From contig JBBAWM010000002.1 in NCBI GenBank assembly GCA_040397175.1, positions 21,572 to 85,571 on the forward strand: DNA of 64,000 nucleotides, given 5' to 3'. A program made the translations under genes and the position numbers. The notes under the pieces are model-generated. The model was not told the DNA's origin. It saw only the letters and a program-made list of their open reading frames with translations, and did no database searches. The stretch comes from Candidatus Limnocylindrus sp. (GTDB lineage: Bacteria > Chloroflexota > Limnocylindria > Limnocylindrales > Limnocylindraceae). How positions within the stretch are numbered: position 1 is the stretch's first letter; the number at the start of each line of letters is the position of its first letter. Shown here one piece after another: positions 25,498 to 33,602 of this stretch.

Positions 25498-25920
25498 ATG
25501 TCTGAGCGGATGCCCCGTGTCGATGAGCTGCTTAGGGAAGAGATCAGTGCCCATATTGGCCGCTCACTCAGTGATCCACGGCTCGGCTTTGTGACCGTGA
25601 CCTCTGTGTCAACATCACCAGACTTGCGGCACGCAAAAGTGTTTGTCAGCACTATCGGCAGTGAAGAACAACGAGTCGCCTCGCTTGCAGCGCTCAAGAG
25701 TGCCGCTTCTCACCTTCGCACCGTCATCGGCAAGGGGCTGCGTATTCGCCGCGTTCCTGACCTGCATTTCGAACTGGATGAGGCGGGCGATCGTGGCGCA
25801 CGCATTCAGCAGCTACTGGGAAGCATTGCCGATGGAGGCCTCCCACCTGAGACGCTCTCGCCGCTTCCGGCTCCGACACGCACAGGAGTGGAAGAGAAGA
25901 TCCGGAGGAGTAAGGGATGA
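25498..25920 (+). CDS. rbfA: ribosome-binding factor A
   Basis: The product has RVDELLREEIS, VTVTSVSTSPDLRHAKVFVS and a KH-like fold. Confidence 0.9.
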   Translation: MSERMPRVDELLREEISAHIGRSLSDPRLGFVTVTSVSTSPDLRHAKVFVSTIGSEEQRVASLAALKSAASHLRTVIGKGLRIRRVPDLHFELDEAGDRGARIQQLLGSIADGGLPPETLSPLPAPTRTGVEEKIRRSKG

Positions 25921-26984
25921 GCGAGCAGGGGATGGTGCACGCAGCGGAGTACCTCACCCGCGCGGGTAACTTGCAAGCGACCGCACGGGGCGCCGTCCCT
26001 GCAAATGTACTAGCGGCTTTACGTTCGGCAAAGCGGTTATGGGTTGTACCGCACGAGCGACCAGACGCCGACGCCCTTGGCGCCGCGCTCGGACTCAAGG
26101 CAATCCTCGGGCAGCTTGGCGCGGAGGTCGTCGTGATCAGCGCCGATGCTCCGCCTGCGGTATATGACGTCATCCCCACGATTCGTGAGGTTTCCCTTGA
26201 GGCACCAACCTGGGCCCCAGATGCGATCGTGCTGGTCGATTGCGCCGATCCAACGCGTGCCGGTCGCATTGGCGATCTCATCAACGCACTCCCAGCCTCA
26301 ACGCCACGAATCCTGATCGATCACCATGTTTCCAACGAAACTACGTGGCCCATCGCTTGGGTTGATGCGCACGCCGCTGCAACCTGCGAAATGGTCAGTC
26401 TCATTGCGCTTGCGCTGAAAGCAGATCTCTCAGCAGACGACGGAAGGCTGGCCACGACGCTCGCGGCGGGCGTGATCATGGATACCGCCACCTTTCAACA
26501 TGGCAACACGACTTCGCGGACCCTTGAAGTTGGCGGACTCCTTCTTGCGGCAGGTGCGCCGATCAGTGAGATCTCCCGAAAGATCTACCGTTCCAAGCCC
26601 CTGGCGCAGGTACAGCTGCACGCGCGTGTTTTGGCCAGCCTTGCTGCATCGGATGGGGGTCGCACCGTCTTCGCCACCATGACGCTCGGCGACCTGACGG
26701 AGTGCGGAGCCACGCTGGAAATGAGTGAAGGCATCGTTGACTCACTGGCACATGTGGCTGAGGCTGATGTGGCGATCTTCTTCAAGGAGGATGGCCCAGC
26801 CTCCGCGCGCATCTCCGTGCGGACGAAAGGGGAGGGACCCGACGCCACCGAGGTCGTTGGCGCATTCGGTGGTGGCGGTCATGCTCGCGCCGCGGGCGCG
26901 ACCATTGGCCTCCCCGTTAACGAGGCCGTCACCTTGGTGCTGGCGCGCGTGACGGAGCTTCGCGCGCACGCTGTAGCGGGCTGA
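25917..26984 (+). CDS. nrnA: DHH-DHHA1 phosphoesterase NrnA (nanoRNase/pAp phosphatase)
   Basis: The product has the DHH motif ILIDHHVSN and the DHHA1 motif GGGHARAAGA. It lies downstream of rbfA, as in Gram-positives. Confidence 0.8.
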   Translation: MSEQGMVHAAEYLTRAGNLQATARGAVPANVLAALRSAKRLWVVPHERPDADALGAALGLKAILGQLGAEVVVISADAPPAVYDVIPTIREVSLEAPTWAPDAIVLVDCADPTRAGRIGDLINALPASTPRILIDHHVSNETTWPIAWVDAHAAATCEMVSLIALALKADLSADDGRLATTLAAGVIMDTATFQHGNTTSRTLEVGGLLLAAGAPISEISRKIYRSKPLAQVQLHARVLASLAASDGGRTVFATMTLGDLTECGATLEMSEGIVDSLAHVAEADVAIFFKEDGPASARISVRTKGEGPDATEVVGAFGGGGHARAAGATIGLPVNEAVTLVLARVTELRAHAVAG

Positions 26985-26988
26985 GCGT

Positions 26989-27951
26989 ATGGCGCGGCGA
27001 CGGCCGAGCACGCCGGGTATTGACGGGGTCCTTCTCGTCGATAAGCCAAATGGTCCGACGAGCCACGACATCGTTGCCAAGATTCGCCGCATGGCTGGGC
27101 AACCGCGTATCGGGCATGGCGGCACCCTCGACCCGTTTGCGACCGGACTCCTGGTGCTCGTCCTTGGCCGCGCAACTCGCCTGGCGAGCATGCATCTGGG
27201 CGGCGAGAAGCGCTACGAGGCGACCTTCTCGTTTGGCGGGGGAACCACTACCGATGATCTTGATGGCGAGCGCCTCGGTACTCCTGGCACACCACCCTCC
27301 CAGAAGGCCATTGAGGCCCTGCTGCCCCGCTACCGGGGCGTCCTAGAGCAGGTGCCGCCATCCCACTCGGCAAAGCGCACAGACGGCGTACGGGCATATG
27401 AGCGCGCACGAGCAGGGGAGGTGGTGGAGCTCGCACCACGCCCAATTGAAATCAAGCGATTTGAGATCCTTGGTTGGGACGACTCCCACGCCGACGAGCC
27501 GCTCATGCATGCCCGGCTTGATGTGAGCTCTGGTACCTACATTCGCGCCATTGCACGCGATCTCGGTCGCGACGCAGGGAGTGGCGCACACCTCGTCGCG
27601 CTGCGGCGCGTTGGTTCTGGTGTCTTTGCGGCTACCGAGGCGCACACCATGGAGCAGATTGCCGCCGCTGCACTGGCGGGCGAACTGCGCAACTTGCTGC
27701 TGCCGCTCGACGCTGGGCTCGACCACATCGCCGCAACGGAGGTGGGCGAAAAGGGTGCGGCACTGCTGCGCGATGGCATCGCACTCCCCGTCGGCATGCT
27801 GGACAGCGCCGGCCAGGAGACGGCAGAGGGGAGCCCCCTGCGGCTGTACGTCCACGGCGCGATCGCCGCGTTCGGTCGACGCACCGCATTCGGCGCACAA
27901 CCTGAGCGCGTCTTCATTGAATCAAACGCGCTGGTAGGGCAACGCCTGTGA
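26989..27951 (+). CDS. truB: tRNA pseudouridine(55) synthase
   Basis: The product has the catalytic-Asp region GHGGTLDPFATGLLVL. Confidence 0.9.
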   Translation: MARRRPSTPGIDGVLLVDKPNGPTSHDIVAKIRRMAGQPRIGHGGTLDPFATGLLVLVLGRATRLASMHLGGEKRYEATFSFGGGTTTDDLDGERLGTPGTPPSQKAIEALLPRYRGVLEQVPPSHSAKRTDGVRAYERARAGEVVELAPRPIEIKRFEILGWDDSHADEPLMHARLDVSSGTYIRAIARDLGRDAGSGAHLVALRRVGSGVFAATEAHTMEQIAAAALAGELRNLLLPLDAGLDHIAATEVGEKGAALLRDGIALPVGMLDSAGQETAEGSPLRLYVHGAIAAFGRRTAFGAQPERVFIESNALVGQRL

Positions 27952-28787
27952 AGCGGGTGGTCGGCTGGAACGAGCTAGCGCTGGAGATGGCGCCAGGGGA
28001 GAACGCTGCGCCTGGTTCGGTTCTCACCCTCGGCATCTTCGATGGGCTCCACCGTGGCCATATGCGGCTGCTCGCCGCTGCCGAGCGACTGGCTCGGGCG
28101 GCGGGGCTCGAGCGCGTGCATATCGGCTTCACGCCACACCCTGATCAGCTGATTCGGGGCACAACCCCCCTCCAACTCCTTGATGTAGGGGAGCTCGAGC
28201 TCCGCATGGCGGGGGCGGGTGTCGACCTCTGGTGCGACCTGCCCTTCACTCCAGAGACGCGCGATACCCCCTGGGAGGAGTTCATCGAGCGTCTCGTCGG
28301 GGTGACCAAGGCGAAGGGGATCGTCCTCTCGCCAGAATCCGCATTTGGTCAGGGCCGCCAGGGGACGCTGCCTAACGTTCGAGCCTGGGGTGCCGTCCAC
28401 GGCCTACAGGTGCACCCGGTCGCCGAAGCAACCGCTGGTGGGACCCCTATTCGTAGCACCCGCATCCGCGAGGCCATTGCCGGCGGGGACCTCACTGGGG
28501 CAGCGCGCCTCCTCGCGCGACCCTATGCCCTAGTCGGTAGGCTCCAGGGTGACCAGATCCACCTGCAGCGCCATGAGGCTGCCGTGCCGCCCCCAGGGGA
28601 GTACCGGGCTCGCGTTGGGGCAGCTGGGCGCCCTGAAGGACGCCTCCCCCTCGTAGGGCGGCTCACCACCGTGCGGGTGAGTTCCGATGGGCTGACGATC
28701 ACGCTCGTGCGGCCCGAGGGCGCAGATCGACGTTTTGAGGGGGGTCCGATGCGGGTCGCCCTGCTTGGGGAGAGCCTCCAAGCGTAG
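27948..28787 (+). CDS. ribF: FAD synthetase RibF; flavokinase half appears degenerate
   Basis: The N-terminal half has the nucleotidyltransferase motif LTLGIFDGLHRGHMRLL. The C-terminal half is short and lacks the conserved GRxLGFPTAN loop. Confidence 0.8.
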   Translation: MKRVVGWNELALEMAPGENAAPGSVLTLGIFDGLHRGHMRLLAAAERLARAAGLERVHIGFTPHPDQLIRGTTPLQLLDVGELELRMAGAGVDLWCDLPFTPETRDTPWEEFIERLVGVTKAKGIVLSPESAFGQGRQGTLPNVRAWGAVHGLQVHPVAEATAGGTPIRSTRIREAIAGGDLTGAARLLARPYALVGRLQGDQIHLQRHEAAVPPPGEYRARVGAAGRPEGRLPLVGRLTTVRVSSDGLTITLVRPEGADRRFEGGPMRVALLGESLQA

Positions 28788-28871
28788 ATTTGCTACCCTA
28801 TGTACATCCAAGATGTGATGAAGAGATGAGGGGTGCCCTTGGAGCACCTCCGATGTAAGGAGAAGTACCAC

Positions 28872-29141
28872 TTGCCACTAGACCAAGCAACAACCGCACG
28901 CATCGTTGCAGACAACGGGCGTCACGGTACTGATACTGGGTCCGCAGACGTTCAGATCGCACTCCTGACGGAGCGCATTCAGGGACTGACCGCGCACCTG
29001 CAAACCTTTAAGCAGGACAACCATTCGCGCCGCGGGCTCTTGAAGCTCGTCGGTCAGCGACGTCGACTGCTGACATTTCTCAAGCGTGAAGATGCAGCGC
29101 GCTACGCCGCGCTCTCCGAGAAGCTCGGACTTCGTCGCTAA
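28872..29141 (+). CDS. rpsO: 30S ribosomal protein S15 (TTG 28872 after AAGGAG; ORF opens at 28833)
   Basis: The product has [16 protein letters not shown] and [17 protein letters not shown] and ends LGLRR. Confidence 0.9.
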
Positions 29142-29217: not shown

Positions 29218-31815
29218 ATGAGCAACATCACCAGCGTTTCCGCCGAGTTCGGCGGTCAGACCCTCACGATTGAGACAGGCCGAATGGCCCGCCTCGCCGG
29301 TGGCGCAGTCACCGTTCGCTACGGCGACACCGTGGTCCTTGGCACTGCAAACCGCAGCGAGCCACGACCAGGCCTCGACTTCTTCCCACTCACGATTGAG
29401 TTTGAAGAGCGCATGTACGCCGCGGGAAAGATCCCGGGCGGTTACATCAAGCGCGAAGGGCGAGCCTCCGAGAACGCAACGCTCTCCGCGCGTCTCACCG
29501 ACCGACCGATTCGCCCACTCTTCCCAGAGGGGTACAAGGATGACGTTCAGGTTGTTATCACCGTGCTGAGCGCAGACCAGGAGAACGACCCAGACATCCT
29601 TGGAACGCTCGCGGCATCTGCAGCGCTCACCATCTCCGAGATTCCGTTCCTTGGGCCAATCGGCGCAGTGCGCGTCGGCATTGTGAACGGTGCCTTTGTT
29701 ATCAACCCAACGTTCGACCAGCTCAAGGAGAGCGATCTCGACTTGGTAGTTTCAGGAACCGTTAGCGCGATCATGATGGTCGAGGCTGGCGCGAACCTGA
29801 TCACCGAAGAGAAGATGGCCGAGGCCATTGAGTTCGGTCATAACGCCATCAAGGCGCTCGTTGCCCTTCAGGAGGAGCTGCGCGCCAAGGTCGGCAAGCA
29901 GAAGCGCGTTCCATACATCGAGCCAAGCACCGACAGCGTGCTGGCGTTTGCCGAGGCGGCCGCAAACGGTGGCACATTCGTGATCGTCGATACGGAAACT
30001 ACCGGCCTTGACCCGAAGATTTCTGACCTTGTCGAAGTTGCGGCAGTGAAGGTCAAGGGTGGCAAGATCACCGACCGCTGGAGCAGTTTTGTTGATGCCG
30101 GCAACGACATCGTTGGCGCCCAGATGCATGGCATCACCAACAAGGAGATCCAGGGCGGCCTCACGCCGAAGGCAGCGGCCGAGAAGATTGCTGAATTCGC
30201 CAAGGGCGCAATCCTTGTCGGACACAACCTTGGCTTTGATGTCGCCTTCCTCGATGAGGCACTCGGCAAGGGTCGCTCATTTGCAACCGAGCAGGGGAGC
30301 TACCTCGACACCTATGTCCTCTTCAAGGAGGCGTACCCAGAGAGCGAGTCGTTCAAGCTCGGAGATCTCGCACGCGTTTATGGCGCAGCGACCACTCCGA
30401 ACCATCGAGCGGCCGCTGACGCGGAAGCAACAGCAGAGCTCTTGCTGATCCTCGCCAACGAACTCCCAGGTCGCCTCGCGACGCTCAAGGAGGGGATTGC
30501 CGATTCGATCCGTGCCGCCCGTAGCGGCAAGGGCGAGCCAAAGGCGATCTTTGAGGCGGCACGCCGTAAAGCGCGCGTCGGTAGAAACCTCTTCGGCTGG
30601 ATGCATAAGAAGACGGCGCGTAACCTCACGATGAAGGAGGGGATTCGCCTCGACGGTCGGAAGGTCGACGAGATCCGCAAGATCTCGGTAGAGGTTGGTC
30701 TGCTCCCACGCGCACACGGCTCAGGCCTCTTCACCCGCGGTGAGACCCAGGCGTTGAGCGTGGCAACCCTTGGCCCAGTGGCACAGGGACAGCGTCTCGA
30801 CACGATCTCGCCGATCACCGAGAAGCGCTACATCCACCACTACAACATGCCGCCGTACAGCACCGGTGAGAACAAGCCGATGCGTGGCCCAGGGCGACGC
30901 GAAATTGGGCACGGAGCCCTTGCCGAGCGAGCACTCATCCCAGTGCTCCCTTCGATCGAGGAGTTCCCGTACGCCATCCGAGTCGTCTCAGAGTGCGTAA
31001 CCTCTAACGGATCGACCTCAATGGCCTCAACTTGCGGTTCGAGCCTCTCGCTCCTTGATGCCGGCGTGCCGCTCAAGGCGTCGGTGGCTGGCGCCGCAAT
31101 GGGCCTCATGTCGGAGCCAGACGGCGAATTCATCGTCCTCACGGACATCCTCGGCAAGGAGGATGCCTTCGGCGACATGGACTTCAAGGTGACCGGTACC
31201 CGTACGGGTATCACGGCCTTGCAGATGGACATCAAGGTGCAGGGGATCAACGGGGCGATCATTCGCACCGGCCTCAAGGATGCGCTTGCCGCCCGACTCG
31301 AGATCCTCGACAAGATGGACGCGATCATCAGCACGGCTCGACCAGAGCTCTCTGATTTCGCCCCACGCATCACCACGATCAAGATCAATCCGGAGAAGAT
31401 CCGCGACATCATTGGTAAGGGTGGCGCAGTGATTCGCAAGTTGCAGGATGACTTCCAGGTGAACATCAACGTACAGGACGACGGCACCGTGCAGATCGCT
31501 TCGGCTGATCCAGAGCGCACCAAGGGTGTCCTTGATGCGATCAATGGAATCACCAAAGAGGTTGAACTCGGCGCGCTCTATATGGGCAAGGTGACCCGCA
31601 TCATGGGCTTCGGCTGCTTCGTTGAGATCCTTCCAGGTAAGGAAGGCCTCGTACGCATCGGCGAGCTTGCCGACTACCGTGTGAACACGGTTGAGGATGA
31701 GGTCGCCGTGGGCGACGAGATCATGGTGGTGGTCACCGAAGTCGACCGCCAGGGTCGCGTCAACCTGTCGCGCCGCGCCGCCATGCAGCGTCATAAGGCC
31801 GCGCCTCAAGAGTAA
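29218..31815 (+). CDS. pnp: polynucleotide phosphorylase with in-frame inserted DnaQ-like DEDDh 3'-5' exonuclease domain (865 aa)
   Basis: PH1 (aa 1-~190), PH2 with RLDGR and HGSGLFTRGETQAL, KH (GKGGAVIRKL) and S1 are all present. Residues ~250-415 match an ExoI, ExoII and ExoIII exonuclease domain. An AGGAGA Shine-Dalgarno lies upstream. Confidence 0.9.
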   Translation: MSNITSVSAEFGGQTLTIETGRMARLAGGAVTVRYGDTVVLGTANRSEPRPGLDFFPLTIEFEERMYAAGKIPGGYIKREGRASENATLSARLTDRPIRPLFPEGYKDDVQVVITVLSADQENDPDILGTLAASAALTISEIPFLGPIGAVRVGIVNGAFVINPTFDQLKESDLDLVVSGTVSAIMMVEAGANLITEEKMAEAIEFGHNAIKALVALQEELRAKVGKQKRVPYIEPSTDSVLAFAEAAANGGTFVIVDTETTGLDPKISDLVEVAAVKVKGGKITDRWSSFVDAGNDIVGAQMHGITNKEIQGGLTPKAAAEKIAEFAKGAILVGHNLGFDVAFLDEALGKGRSFATEQGSYLDTYVLFKEAYPESESFKLGDLARVYGAATTPNHRAAADAEATAELLLILANELPGRLATLKEGIADSIRAARSGKGEPKAIFEAARRKARVGRNLFGWMHKKTARNLTMKEGIRLDGRKVDEIRKISVEVGLLPRAHGSGLFTRGETQALSVATLGPVAQGQRLDTISPITEKRYIHHYNMPPYSTGENKPMRGPGRREIGHGALAERALIPVLPSIEEFPYAIRVVSECVTSNGSTSMASTCGSSLSLLDAGVPLKASVAGAAMGLMSEPDGEFIVLTDILGKEDAFGDMDFKVTGTRTGITALQMDIKVQGINGAIIRTGLKDALAARLEILDKMDAIISTARPELSDFAPRITTIKINPEKIRDIIGKGGAVIRKLQDDFQVNINVQDDGTVQIASADPERTKGVLDAINGITKEVELGALYMGKVTRIMGFGCFVEILPGKEGLVRIGELADYRVNTVEDEVAVGDEIMVVVTEVDRQGRVNLSRRAAMQRHKAAPQE
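29965..30465 (+). other. DEDDh exonuclease domain embedded in pnp (ExoI VIVDTETTG; ExoII LVGHNLGFDVAFLD; ExoIII HRAAADAEATAELL)
   Basis: All five catalytic residues are present at canonical spacing: D258, E260, D341, H396 and D401. The domain is about 165 aa, inserted between helices of the PNPase alpha domain. Confidence 0.8.
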
Positions 31816-31891: not shown

Positions 31892-32941
31892 ATGAGCAAC
31901 GCATCGAACCCAGAAGGTTTCGTCGTCGCCGTCCTCGGCGCCACTGGACTCGTTGGGCAGACCATGATCTCGGTGCTTGAAGAGCGCAACTTCCCTGTGC
32001 GCACGCTTATTCCACTTGCTGCCACGAGCGGTGGGCGCACCGTTCGCTTTCGTGGCGCCGATATCTTGGTGCAACAGGTTCAACCAGACTCGTTCAACGG
32101 CGTCGATCTTGCGCTTTTCAGCGCAGGTGGCGCCGCAAGCTTGACGTATGCGCCAGAAGCGGCGGCCCGCGGCTGCGTCGTTGTCGACAACTCCAGCGCC
32201 TGGCGCATGGATCCGAGTGTGCCGCTGGTTGTCTCGCAGGTAAATCCAGGGGCGCTCGCAACGCACAACGGCATCATTGCGAACCCGAACTGCTCGACCA
32301 TGCAGCTTGCGCCGCTATTAAAAGCGCTCTCTGATGCGGCCGGTTTACAGCGGGTGGTTGTCGCCACGTATCAGGCGGTCTCGGGTGCCGGCTCAAAATC
32401 AGTGGCTGATTTAGTTCAACAGCGAACCACCCTTGTGAATGGCGGCACACCCACTTCGACCATCTATCCGCATGCCGTCATTTCGAGCCCAATCCCCGCG
32501 ATCGATGTGTTCCTTCCTGATGGCTCCACCAAAGAGGAGGCCAAGGTCGTCAATGAGAGCCGGAAGATTCTCGACCTGCCGAACCTGCGTATCTCTGCAA
32601 CGGCGGTCCGTGTTCCCGTTGAACGGAGCCACTCCGAGGCGGTGCACGTTGAGCTATCGCGGGCGCTGAGCCCCGACCAAGCTCGTATCGTCTTTGCTGC
32701 GATGCAGGGGGTAACCCTGGTAGACGATCCAGCAAGTCATTCCTATCCACTTGCAGCAGATGCGTCCGGCAGTGACGAGATTTATGTCGGGAGAGTGCGC
32801 ACCGACGCCAGCGTTGAGCATGGGCTTGCCTTCTGGGTGGTGAGTGACAACATCCGCAAGGGTGCGGCGACGAACGCCGTTGAGATTGCTGAGCTCTTGG
32901 TCAGCATGAACCTGGTCCATGGAGCCAGTCACGTCGCCTAA
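31892..32941 (+). CDS. asd: aspartate-semialdehyde dehydrogenase
   Basis: The product has VAVLGATGLVGQTM and the active-site region NPNCSTM. Confidence 0.9.
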   Translation: MSNASNPEGFVVAVLGATGLVGQTMISVLEERNFPVRTLIPLAATSGGRTVRFRGADILVQQVQPDSFNGVDLALFSAGGAASLTYAPEAAARGCVVVDNSSAWRMDPSVPLVVSQVNPGALATHNGIIANPNCSTMQLAPLLKALSDAAGLQRVVVATYQAVSGAGSKSVADLVQQRTTLVNGGTPTSTIYPHAVISSPIPAIDVFLPDGSTKEEAKVVNESRKILDLPNLRISATAVRVPVERSHSEAVHVELSRALSPDQARIVFAAMQGVTLVDDPASHSYPLAADASGSDEIYVGRVRTDASVEHGLAFWVVSDNIRKGAATNAVEIAELLVSMNLVHGASHVA

Positions 32942-33602
32942 CCGAATCGCTCTCGAGCTCGCCTCGGTCGCCCGCGACGCCTCCACCTGTACGGCGTGTG
33001 CGCTCTCAGCCACAAGAACCCAGACGGTCCCCGGCGAGGGGAGTCCTACGGCAGCCCTGGTTTTCGTTGGGGAGGCCCCGGGAGCGCGGGAAGATCTGGC
33101 TGGTCGCCCGTTCGTTGGCGCGTCTGGTCGCCTTCTGGACGACCTCCTGGCCTCGATCGGCCTACGGCGCGACGAGATCTTCATCCTGAATACGGTGAAG
33201 TGTCGGCCACCAGCGAACCGCAATCCCCAGCGCGCAGAAACTGCTGCCTGTGCCTCGTTCCTCACACGGCAGTTGAAGGCGTTGCAGCCCCGGGTGATCG
33301 CCACCCTCGGGAGGCACGCACTTGCTGTCTTTGCGCCAAGCGCGAAGATTGCCGAGGTGCACGGACGTCCCCACGCACAGACAGACGGTGATCAGCGCGG
33401 TGGTGCGGTGCTCTTTCCCCTCTATCACCCCGCAGCGGCACTCCACAACGGGAGCCTGCGACCAGCCTTAGAGCGCGATATGGCGGCCCTGGGAGAGTTT
33501 CTCTCCATGAATGCTCGCGAAGAGGCGGGGGAGGCTACCCTACGCGAGGTGGATTCGGTGCCGACTCGGCGCCGTTCCAGCATGCAAGGGGAGGCTGAAT
33601 GA
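32919..33602 (+). CDS. udg: family 4 uracil-DNA glycosylase
   Basis: The product has CTACAL, LVFVGEAPGARED, FVGASGRLL and HPAAALHN. Confidence 0.8.
   Translation: MEPVTSPNRIALELASVARDASTCTACALSATRTQTVPGEGSPTAALVFVGEAPGAREDLAGRPFVGASGRLLDDLLASIGLRRDEIFILNTVKCRPPANRNPQRAETAACASFLTRQLKALQPRVIATLGRHALAVFAPSAKIAEVHGRPHAQTDGDQRGGAVLFPLYHPAAALHNGSLRPALERDMAALGEFLSMNAREEAGEATLREVDSVPTRRRSSMQGEAE

Follow-up and report, generated by a model that had tools for sequence, protein, structure and literature searches.

A polynucleotide phosphorylase with a DEDDh exonuclease domain nested in its helical linker in Limnocylindria

Few RNA-decay enzymes are as well studied or as conserved as polynucleotide phosphorylase (PNPase), and to our knowledge no version with a second catalytic domain has been solved or described. 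Canonical PNPases (TIGR03591; e.g., E. coli 3GCM, C. crescentus 4AM3, and Staphylococcus 5YJJ) share with the protein reported here the order of PH1, all-alpha linker, PH2, KH, and S1, intact phosphate- and metal-binding motifs, and the rpsO-pnp locus, whereas about 25 residues of their helical domain are replaced here by a 176-aa segment with a complete DEDDh nuclease. Nurmohamed et al. 2009 (PMC2723993) located the helical domain of canonical enzymes on the face opposite S1 and KH, where it lines a pore that leads to the active site.

The DEDDh exonuclease of PolC (9qpc, 2p1j) serves a replicative DNA polymerase and acts on the DNA primer terminus, unlike the domain studied here, whose host is a phosphorolytic RNase, while the N-terminal DEDDh exonuclease of DinG (S. 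aureus 8zef/9ii8; B. subtilis) is a terminal helicase fusion rather than a nested domain and works in DNA and replication-stress pathways. The DEDDh RNases Orn/REXO2 and RNase T resemble it in superfamily fold and in the five catalytic residues. In eukaryotes, the exosome ring lacks catalytic activity of its own and carries Rrp6 on its cap side. Both Rrp6 on the nuclear exosome (5vzj) and the RNase D that accompanies PNPase in the Caulobacter degradosome (PMC4245959) are DEDDy enzymes on separate polypeptides that are recruited non-covalently, whereas the arrangement described below is a covalent DEDDh fusion, predicted to lie on the face opposite KH/S1, in which the catalytic motifs of the ring are kept.

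Here, we analyzed a pnp gene within a 64-kb stretch of DNA (hereafter, the window) from a freshwater Candidatus Limnocylindrus-like bacterium (Chloroflexota, class Limnocylindria). A sequence-only reading had proposed that its product is a PNPase of undescribed architecture, and indeed no description of a PNPase with a nested DEDDh domain was found in the open-access literature or bioRxiv, including the main Limnocylindria genomics paper.

The pnp locus and its product

The gene (Table 1) forms a single frame without interruption, and its exact product was also found in public collections (NCBI and Logan). An 865-aa frame longer than usual for PNPases had been claimed before and is confirmed, and the extra length is real, since solved bacterial PNPases span only 705–784 aa. 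With rpsO directly upstream, this is the canonical rpsO-pnp housekeeping locus. The synteny is kept in related loci (L002–L071) wherever the contig extends upstream of pnp, and the wider order DHH-truB-ribF-rpsO-pnp-asd-UDG-RNase J is kept, within contig reach, in the Limnocylindria-type loci (L001–L071). The NrnA-type gene already noticed in this cluster encodes a DHH/DHHA1 NrnA-like protein and is conserved there; this protein could already cover nanoRNA degradation. No second DEDDh gene (paralogue) was found within the window or in the pnp-flanking loci, and Rfam at gathering thresholds returned no match within the window.

Pfam searches of the 865-aa protein detected two RNase_PH domains, RNase_PH_C, KH_1, and S1, plus PF00929 RNase_T. 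Its PNPase membership is indicated by NCBIfam models TIGR03591 (918 bits vs. a cutoff of 525), matched in two stretches flanking the insert, and NF008805 (912 bits vs. a cutoff of 471). Solved PNPases were matched at E ~1e-207 to 1e-199; all of them lack the insert, and the query TM-score was only ~0.6. The full-length AF2 monomer model, which is only moderately confident (pLDDT 74), matched PNPase 7ogl in Foldseek (E=2.7e-62).

In place of a contiguous all-alpha linker, the protein has a domain split by the insert, with its flanking helices kept in the model, and the PF03726 all-alpha profile had no match in the product at E<=0.01. Alignment to 8zaw pairs query residues 1–240 with residues 20–251 and query residues 417–860 with residues 277–720, which puts the insert at 29938–30465; the earlier placement at 29965–30465 was therefore right to within nine codons, the end holding and the start lying nine codons too late. 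The N-terminal part of the split domain is predicted to comprise the end of a long helix (aa 197–225) followed by a loop, and its length is invariant among 49 orthologues. In the C-terminal part, helices are predicted to residue 436 and at 441–452 and 456–474, and R450, R453, K464, and R468 are invariant.

Table 1. Features of the rpsO-pnp locus, with positions in the window; aa, residues of the pnp product
Feature	Position	Strand	Evidence
rpsO (ribosomal protein S15), directly upstream of pnp	28833–29141	+	TIGR00952, 112 bits vs. cutoff 64
pnp, PNPase with nested exonuclease	29218–31815	+	ORF call, Pfam, NCBIfam
PH1 core and RNase_PH_C, aa 1–210	29218–29847	+	Pfam (RNase_PH_C aa 146–209)
All-alpha domain, N-terminal part, aa 211–240	29848–29937	+	AF2, alignment to 8zaw/5yjj
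Insert, aa 241–416: short conserved helix (239–249), then DEDDh exonuclease domain	29938–30465	+	
Exo I, VIVDTETTGL, catalytic D258 and E260	29980–30009	+	Motif position; invariant 49/49
Exo II, VGHNLGFDVAFLDE, catalytic D341	30217–30258	+	Motif position, conservation
Exo III, NHRAAADAEATAELL, catalytic H396 and D401	30400–30444	+	Motif position, conservation, AF2
All-alpha domain, C-terminal part, aa 417–470	30466–30627	+	Alignment, conservation, AF2
PH2 core, aa 471–700, with phosphorolytic site	30628–31317	+	Pfam RNase_PH aa 485–618
PH2 motif SNGSTS, aa 596–601	31003–31020	+	Invariant, 79 sequences
PH2 motif D649...D655-F-K657	31162–31188	+	Invariant, 79 sequences
KH domain, aa 719–775	31372–31542	+	Pfam KH_1
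S1 domain, aa 782–853	31561–31776	+	Pfam S1

Kinship, conservation, and distribution of the nested domain

The PF00929 match at aa 255–409 covers the whole profile (1–164/164) at 90.7 bits (cutoff 24; E=2e-25) and is not a chance motif match; the nested domain has the RNase H-like alpha/beta fold, and Exo I, II, and III lie where the sequence-only reading had located them. Its central claim holds: a DEDDh fold with all catalytic residues interrupts the all-alpha domain of a PNPase that is complete in every other respect. By sequence and structure, the closest clades are the PolC, epsilon, and DinG exonucleases, with ExoX also among the relatives, and other DEDDh clades are closer than Orn or RNase T. 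For this reason, the suggestion that the domain is a built-in oligoribonuclease is unproven. The domain is acidic (15 K+R vs. 23 D+E), as are the PolC and epsilon exonucleases, and so it probably needs the host scaffold for substrate delivery.

Exo III opens a helix (aa 398–436) that, in the AF2 model, runs on as one helix into the PNPase all-alpha domain. The N-terminal linker of 27 aa and the 41-aa helix from Exo III into the alpha domain are constant in length in 49/49 sequences, such that the insert is joined to its host by fixed-length segments, one of which is predicted as a continuous helix. Judged by helix lengths, the insert and the phosphorolytic site are probably separated by tens of angstroms.

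None of the five catalytic residues (D258, E260, D341, H396, and D401) varies among the 49 species-level full-length orthologues, in which exonuclease-domain identity falls to 47%, or among the 79 metagenome homologues. Their motif neighbors T261, T262, G263, G335, H336, F340, R397, A398, and A402 are invariant in the same 49 species and 79 metagenome sequences. In PH2, residues S596–S601, D649, D655, and K657, which belong to the motifs that we take, from established PNPase knowledge, to bind phosphate and metal, are invariant in 79 sequences. On the evidence of these residues, both active sites, the phosphorolytic one in PH2 and the DEDDh one with its five residues and two metals, are intact class-wide, and the second, DnaQ/PolC-type 3'-5' exonuclease domain in the helical linker is apparently active.

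The exonuclease domain is under purifying selection, with a dN/dS of ~0.29 as compared to 0.15–0.19 in the PH, KH, and S1 domains and 0.44–0.48 in the flanking alpha helices. Its mean pairwise identity (71%) exceeds that of the carrier helices (61%), and over the same species the DHH, truB, and ribF neighbors have diverged to 35–50%.

At least 71 genomes among the GTDB species representatives share this architecture and its rpsO-pnp location; almost all are labeled Limnocylindria or Chloroflexota. Hundreds of metagenome contigs share it as well, and the insert is present in every orthologue found across class Limnocylindria. In a HMMER search of 1.84 billion representative proteins, none of the best 150 of 5039 matches was a full-length instance of the same fusion in another lineage; the long proteins among those 150 were UvrD-like, PolC, DinG-like, and VRR-NUC fusions. 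Bins labeled Verrucomicrobiia, Deferrimicrobiaceae, and Rhodanobacteraceae hold Limnocylindria-type sequence on contigs of 1.6–6 kb and are probably mis-binned. A group of proteins from a 50%-identity representative library (P0134, P0151, P0162, P0181, and others), with 34–44% identity and partial RNase_T matches, was considered as lineages with a decayed exonuclease and rejected, these being frameshifted translations of noisy contigs.

Proposed function and rival readings

The reading we favor, at a probability of roughly 0.5, is that this gene supplies a Candidatus Limnocylindrus-like bacterium with its housekeeping PNPase and that the enzyme would act as a dual-chemistry (phosphorolytic and hydrolytic) 3'-5' exonuclease. 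An ancestor of the class would have acquired a PolC/DnaQ-type DEDDh domain within the all-alpha linker that joins the two RNase PH-like cores. The enzyme would form the usual PNPase trimer with one hydrolytic exonuclease head per subunit, all three on the side of the ring away from the KH/S1 face where RNA enters; there, the helical domain would line a side pore leading to the phosphorolytic site. Direct substrate hand-off is not evident. Long single-stranded RNA would be degraded phosphorolytically by the ring, while the DEDDh heads, working without phosphate, would hydrolyze single-stranded 3' ends that the ring cannot grip or cannot degrade to completion, for example short 3' overhangs and limit oligonucleotides.

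A possible but doubtful alternative takes the nested domain for a DNA/R-loop exonuclease on single-stranded DNA 3' ends or RNA:DNA hybrids, with PNPase as its delivery platform. The sugar specificity of DEDDh enzymes is not readable from sequence. Homology alone favors DNA over RNA, because the close relatives of the insert are all in DNA-metabolism proteins: the nearest (PolC exonuclease, epsilon, DinG, and ExoX) are DNA enzymes, and the subfamily is also nested in or fused to UvrD-like and DinG-like helicases and GIY-YIG and VRR-NUC nucleases. PNPase itself has been tied to homologous recombination and to DNA repair (PMC5379764), human PNPase has been linked to R-loop homeostasis (PMC12430004), and B. 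subtilis DinG, titled a 3'-5' exo(ribo)nuclease, degrades single-stranded DNA (PMC12525004). A weaker point in its favor is that the KO tables of the Limnocylindria family CSP1-4 contain no dnaQ. The host, however, is a housekeeping RNA-decay enzyme in a ribosome/RNA-processing gene cluster, the only repair link within <=6 kb on either side of pnp is UDG, downstream of asd, and retention of the fusion in all orthologues found suggests that domain and host act together on RNA, the main substrate of the host.

It is quite improbable that the domain is catalytically idle and serves as a structural, regulatory, or docking module, for example by gating the helical-domain side pore or binding a partner. 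The helical domain is dynamic and affects PNPase activity (PMC2723993), which would suit such a role, as would the acidic character of the insert and its faster evolution relative to the PH cores. Against this stands the invariance of the five catalytic and neighboring motif residues in every one of the 49 species and 79 metagenome sequences; such residues are typically lost from DEDD folds that have become inactive.

More improbable still is that the domain doubles as the replicative proofreader of the lineage in place of epsilon. It is PolC/epsilon-like, and the dnaQ KO (K02342) is missing from published CSP1-4 freshwater/sediment KO lists that have dnaE, holA, holB, and dnaX, but those lists are incomplete and patchy (one is without rpoB) and lack pnp itself. 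Moreover, proofreading requires tethering to polymerase and clamp, for which a domain rigidly fixed within a PNPase trimer would be poorly placed, and some bacteria (e.g., mycobacteria) proofread via the DnaE PHP domain.

Finally, a chimeric assembly, a spliced-out intein-like element, or a recent mobile insertion, for which nothing but the unusual length speaks, is practically ruled out: the junctions are identical across no fewer than 71 independent species representatives and hundreds of independent contigs (ENA, JGI, NCBI, and Logan), Pfam found no Hint/intein or homing-endonuclease domain in the protein, GC is uniform over the insert (0.58–0.62), the insert shows no patchy distribution among orthologues, and purifying selection and constant junction lengths likewise argue against a selfish element.

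Implications for annotation and RNA decay

In databases, this protein appears as ordinary PNPase or as "DNA pol III epsilon", and at JGI it is a "DNA polymerase III epsilon subunit family exonuclease", while pnp is absent from the published class KO tables. The fusion thus misleads automatic annotation and can distort metabolic and repair reconstructions of Limnocylindria genomes.

Extending the dual-chemistry reading, the Limnocylindria PNPase might form a self-contained "mini-exosome", in which an active PH ring and three PolC-type hydrolytic heads would be joined rigidly, with a phosphate-independent second mode of 3'-5' decay, which would link RNA decay to DNA/R-loop 3'-end processing if the nested domain were the lineage's only DnaQ-family nuclease. 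We consider this extended form unlikely; the absence of dnaQ from public class KO tables is a hint, not proof, of that last condition. Should the DNA/R-loop reading be true, the minor roles that PNPase is known to have in recombination and DNA repair would be broadened.

The fusion also provides a new example of nested-domain evolution for a PolC-type exonuclease. PH rings and DEDD exonucleases, which are separate subunits elsewhere (exosome-Rrp6 and degradosome PNPase-RNase D), are here parts of a single polypeptide, and a rigid covalent version in an abundant, uncultivated freshwater and soil class may offer a simple model for the coordination of phosphorolytic and hydrolytic 3'-5' decay.

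Domain architecture and predicted structure

In the Limnocylindrus pnp product, Pfam detected two RNase_PH domains, RNase_PH_C, KH_1, and S1, with PF00929 (RNase_T, the DEDDh exonuclease family) between the PH halves at aa 255–409; this match spans the full profile (1–164/164) at 90.7 bits (gathering score 24) and E = 2e-25. The NCBIfam PNPase equivalog TIGR03591 matched at 918 bits, above its cutoff of 525, as two segments flanking the insert. ORF reading, Pfam, NCBIfam, and motif positions thus confirm the uninterrupted frame with embedded exonuclease motifs described in the sequence-only reading, and the full-profile PF00929 match does lie inside a complete PNPase. GC content was continuous across the insert. 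Searching all PDB chains with phmmer aligned query residues 1–240 with residues 20–251 of the PNPase 8zaw, and 417–860 with residues 277–720, and therefore the insert substitutes for a short stretch of the all-alpha linker domain, located between its first long helix (aa 197–225) and its remaining helices.

Features of the pnp locus and neighbouring genes (window coordinates)
Feature	Position (nt)	Strand	Description
DHH/DHHA1 gene ("nrnA" of the sequence-only reading)	25917-26984	+	best NCBIfam match NrnA
ribF-like gene	27948-28787	+	Pfam FAD_syn aa 21-172
pnp ORF	29218-31815	+	single unbroken frame, 865 aa
Insert	29938-30465	+	aa 241-416; ~176 aa in place of ~25 residues of all-alpha linker domain
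Exo I motif	29980-30009	+	
Exo II motif	30217-30258	+	
Exo III motif	30400-30444	+	
Family-4 uracil-DNA glycosylase	32919-33602	+	TIGR00758, 185 bits vs cutoff 125

The AlphaFold2 model of the whole product had a mean pLDDT of 74 and a pTM of 0.73, with the exonuclease at ~80–93 and the S1 domain modelled poorly. Because aa 398–436 form a single unbroken helix in this model, the Exo III helix (H396, D401) is predicted to pass directly into the PNPase alpha domain. Foldseek against the PDB matched ordinary PNPases only (query TM-score ~0.6) and found no solved PNPase with a nested exonuclease domain, and therefore the domain is absent from solved PNPases.

Distribution and conservation across Limnocylindria

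Among the best 120 of 7999 homologues (ENA, JGI, NCBI, and Logan; 98% to 70% identity), PF00929 was present in every one, and full-length proteins (98–100% query coverage) were 858–876 aa long, the sole shorter entry being a fragment, P0020 (729 aa, 84% coverage). Their source names were Candidatus Limnocylindrus, Limnocylindrales, or Chloroflexota, and they were labelled PNPase at NCBI and often "DNA polymerase III epsilon subunit family exonuclease" at JGI; public collections also contain the exact window protein. With aa 200–470 as query, a stretch that includes both junctions, a full HMMER scan over 1.84 billion representatives at 50% identity yielded one full-length fused representative plus fragments among the best 150 of 5039 matches, the remainder matching the exonuclease part only (≤43% identity). 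Apparently divergent fused fragments were rejected as real divergent or decayed lineages, as their translations are frameshifted: the 50%-identity cluster representatives P0134, P0137, P0151, P0162, P0170, and P0181, whose source contigs are GC-rich and full of errors, carry long Arg/Pro/Ala-rich nonsense stretches that make them look like homologues in divergence or decay.

At least 71 GTDB species-representative loci (L001–L071) carry the Limnocylindria-type fused gene (97–47% identity over the query region), most with both junctions covered and nearly all with record titles naming Limnocylindria or Chloroflexota; loci ranked below these matched the exonuclease domain only (36–39%). The order DHH-truB-ribF-rpsO-pnp-asd-UDG-RNase J is kept across them as far as contigs extend. 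Given this order and the class-wide fused loci, the gene is an orthologous housekeeping pnp whose insertion is older than the class radiation. The insert is neither an assembly artefact nor an intein, nor did it arrive recently as a mobile element, which resolves the artefact and intein caveats of the sequence-only reading. Five bins among these with a Limnocylindria-type pnp (L032, L050, L068, L070, and L004; 53–96% identity over the query region) are labelled Verrucomicrobiia, Thermomicrobiales, Deferrimicrobiaceae, Rhodanobacteraceae, and "Thermoflexus hugenholtzii"; their contigs are mostly short (1.6–6 kb; L004, 58 kb), and these bins are probably mis-binned or mislabelled.

The catalytic residues D258, E260, D341, H396, and D401 were invariant in 79 metagenome homologues, as were the PNPase phosphate- and metal-binding motifs, and again in 49/49 full-length species-level orthologues. 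Pairwise identity among the latter averaged 71% in the exonuclease domain, with a minimum of 47%, and lay between the carrier alpha helices (61%) and the PH and S1 domains (85–90%). Nei-Gojobori dN/dS (1168 pairs) was 0.29 for the exonuclease, 0.15–0.19 for the PH, KH, and S1 domains, and 0.44–0.48 for the alpha flanks, and the N-side connecting segment (27 aa) and the Exo III-to-alpha-domain segment (41 aa) had fixed lengths in 49/49 sequences. Invariant catalytic residues and PNPase motifs, low dN/dS, and fixed connector lengths together indicate that selection maintains both catalytic centres, from which we infer activity.

Affinity of the exonuclease and its genomic neighbours

Searched alone against the PDB, the insert fell nearest to PolC proofreading exonucleases (9qpc, 2p1j; E ~1e-21) and S. 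aureus DinG exonuclease (2e-15), followed by Cas2-DEDDh (1e-8), E. coli epsilon (3.5e-5), and RNase T (1.7e-4), with no Orn or REXO2 chain matching at E ≤ 0.001; NCBIfam matches agreed (PolC, PRK07883 DEDD proteins, DinG). The built-in oligoribonuclease proposed earlier is therefore not supported, since the domain is neither Orn-like nor RNase T-like. Among the best non-PNPase matches, this subfamily is nested in the PolC PHP domain and in the UvrD_C domain of UvrD-like helicases, and is fused to DinG-like helicases and to GIY-YIG and VRR-NUC nucleases; every such host is DNA-acting, leaving PNPase as the sole RNA enzyme found. The PolC-type DEDDh subfamily is thus a recurrently nested or fused module. 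UvrD_C-nested, tandem, and fused examples among the retrieved proteins (P0190, P0198, P0226, P0192, P0147, P0146, P0218, P0164, and P0241) include two copies in one PolC, three tandem copies with a UVR motif, and fusions to VRR-NUC/FAN1_HTH, GIY-YIG, and DinG-like helicases.

The nrnA gene reported upstream holds up as a conserved DHH/DHHA1 gene, syntenic with pnp across the class as part of the cluster, but its identity as NrnA falls below the NCBIfam cutoff (93 versus 350 bits), making the product NrnA-like by sequence and not a confirmed equivalog. If it is a nanoRNase, there would be less need for a second one. The ribF-like product matches the FAD-synthetase half only (NCBIfam RibF profiles at ~positions 12–198/325, all far under cutoffs), and as its C-terminal ~80 aa had no Pfam or NCBIfam match, the riboflavin-kinase half seems missing or very divergent. 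The family-4 uracil-DNA glycosylase gene, flanked by asd and RNase J, is syntenic in relatives; loss of UDG-family glycosylases has been reported for Limnocylindraceae (PMC13212565). No Rfam family (tRNA, rRNA, riboswitch, or leader) reached gathering score on either strand of the 64-kb window, the rpsO-pnp intergenic region included.

Novelty and possible function

Both domain families are well known and the sequences already deposited; the novelty lies in their combination and in recognising that it is conserved throughout a class. No publication joining PNPase with a nested DEDD domain was found in searches of open-access papers and bioRxiv, in line with the earlier impression that the architecture is undescribed, and PNPase and exonucleases go unmentioned in a 2026 comparative genomics study of 236 Limnocylindria MAGs (PMC13212565). 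In the portion of its source data covering the CSP1-4 family, the patchy KO lists for freshwater and sediment pools include rpsO, infB, dnaE, holA, holB, and dnaX (K02956, K02519, K02337, K02340, K02341, and K02343), with K00962 (pnp) and K02342 (dnaQ) both absent among the entries listed. The K00962 absence suggests, as a lead only, that the fused PNPase escapes KO assignment.

We favour, at a probability of roughly 0.5, a dual-chemistry 3'-5' exonuclease. The main rival, in which the nested domain acts on DNA or R-loops, draws on its close relatives all being DNA enzymes and on work linking PNPase to recombination and repair (PMC5379764) and to R-loops (PMC12430004); we regard it as a tentative and rather unlikely alternative. 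A catalytically idle, structural domain is improbable, being hard to reconcile with the invariant active site, and substitution for epsilon is highly improbable on steric grounds.

The PNPase helical domain sits on the torus face opposite the S1/KH domains and forms part of a pore that offers another way into the active site, probably for NDP and phosphate (Nurmohamed et al. 2009, PMC2723993). Assuming the usual PNPase trimer, three DEDDh heads would be held at the helical-hairpin tips on that face. The exonuclease domain is acidic (15 K+R versus 23 D+E) and, like PolC and epsilon exonucleases, probably receives its substrate with the help of the host protein. In such a dual-chemistry enzyme, the ring would degrade long single-stranded RNA phosphorolytically, and the DEDDh heads may hydrolyse, free of phosphate, single-stranded 3' ends that the ring fails to engage or finish.
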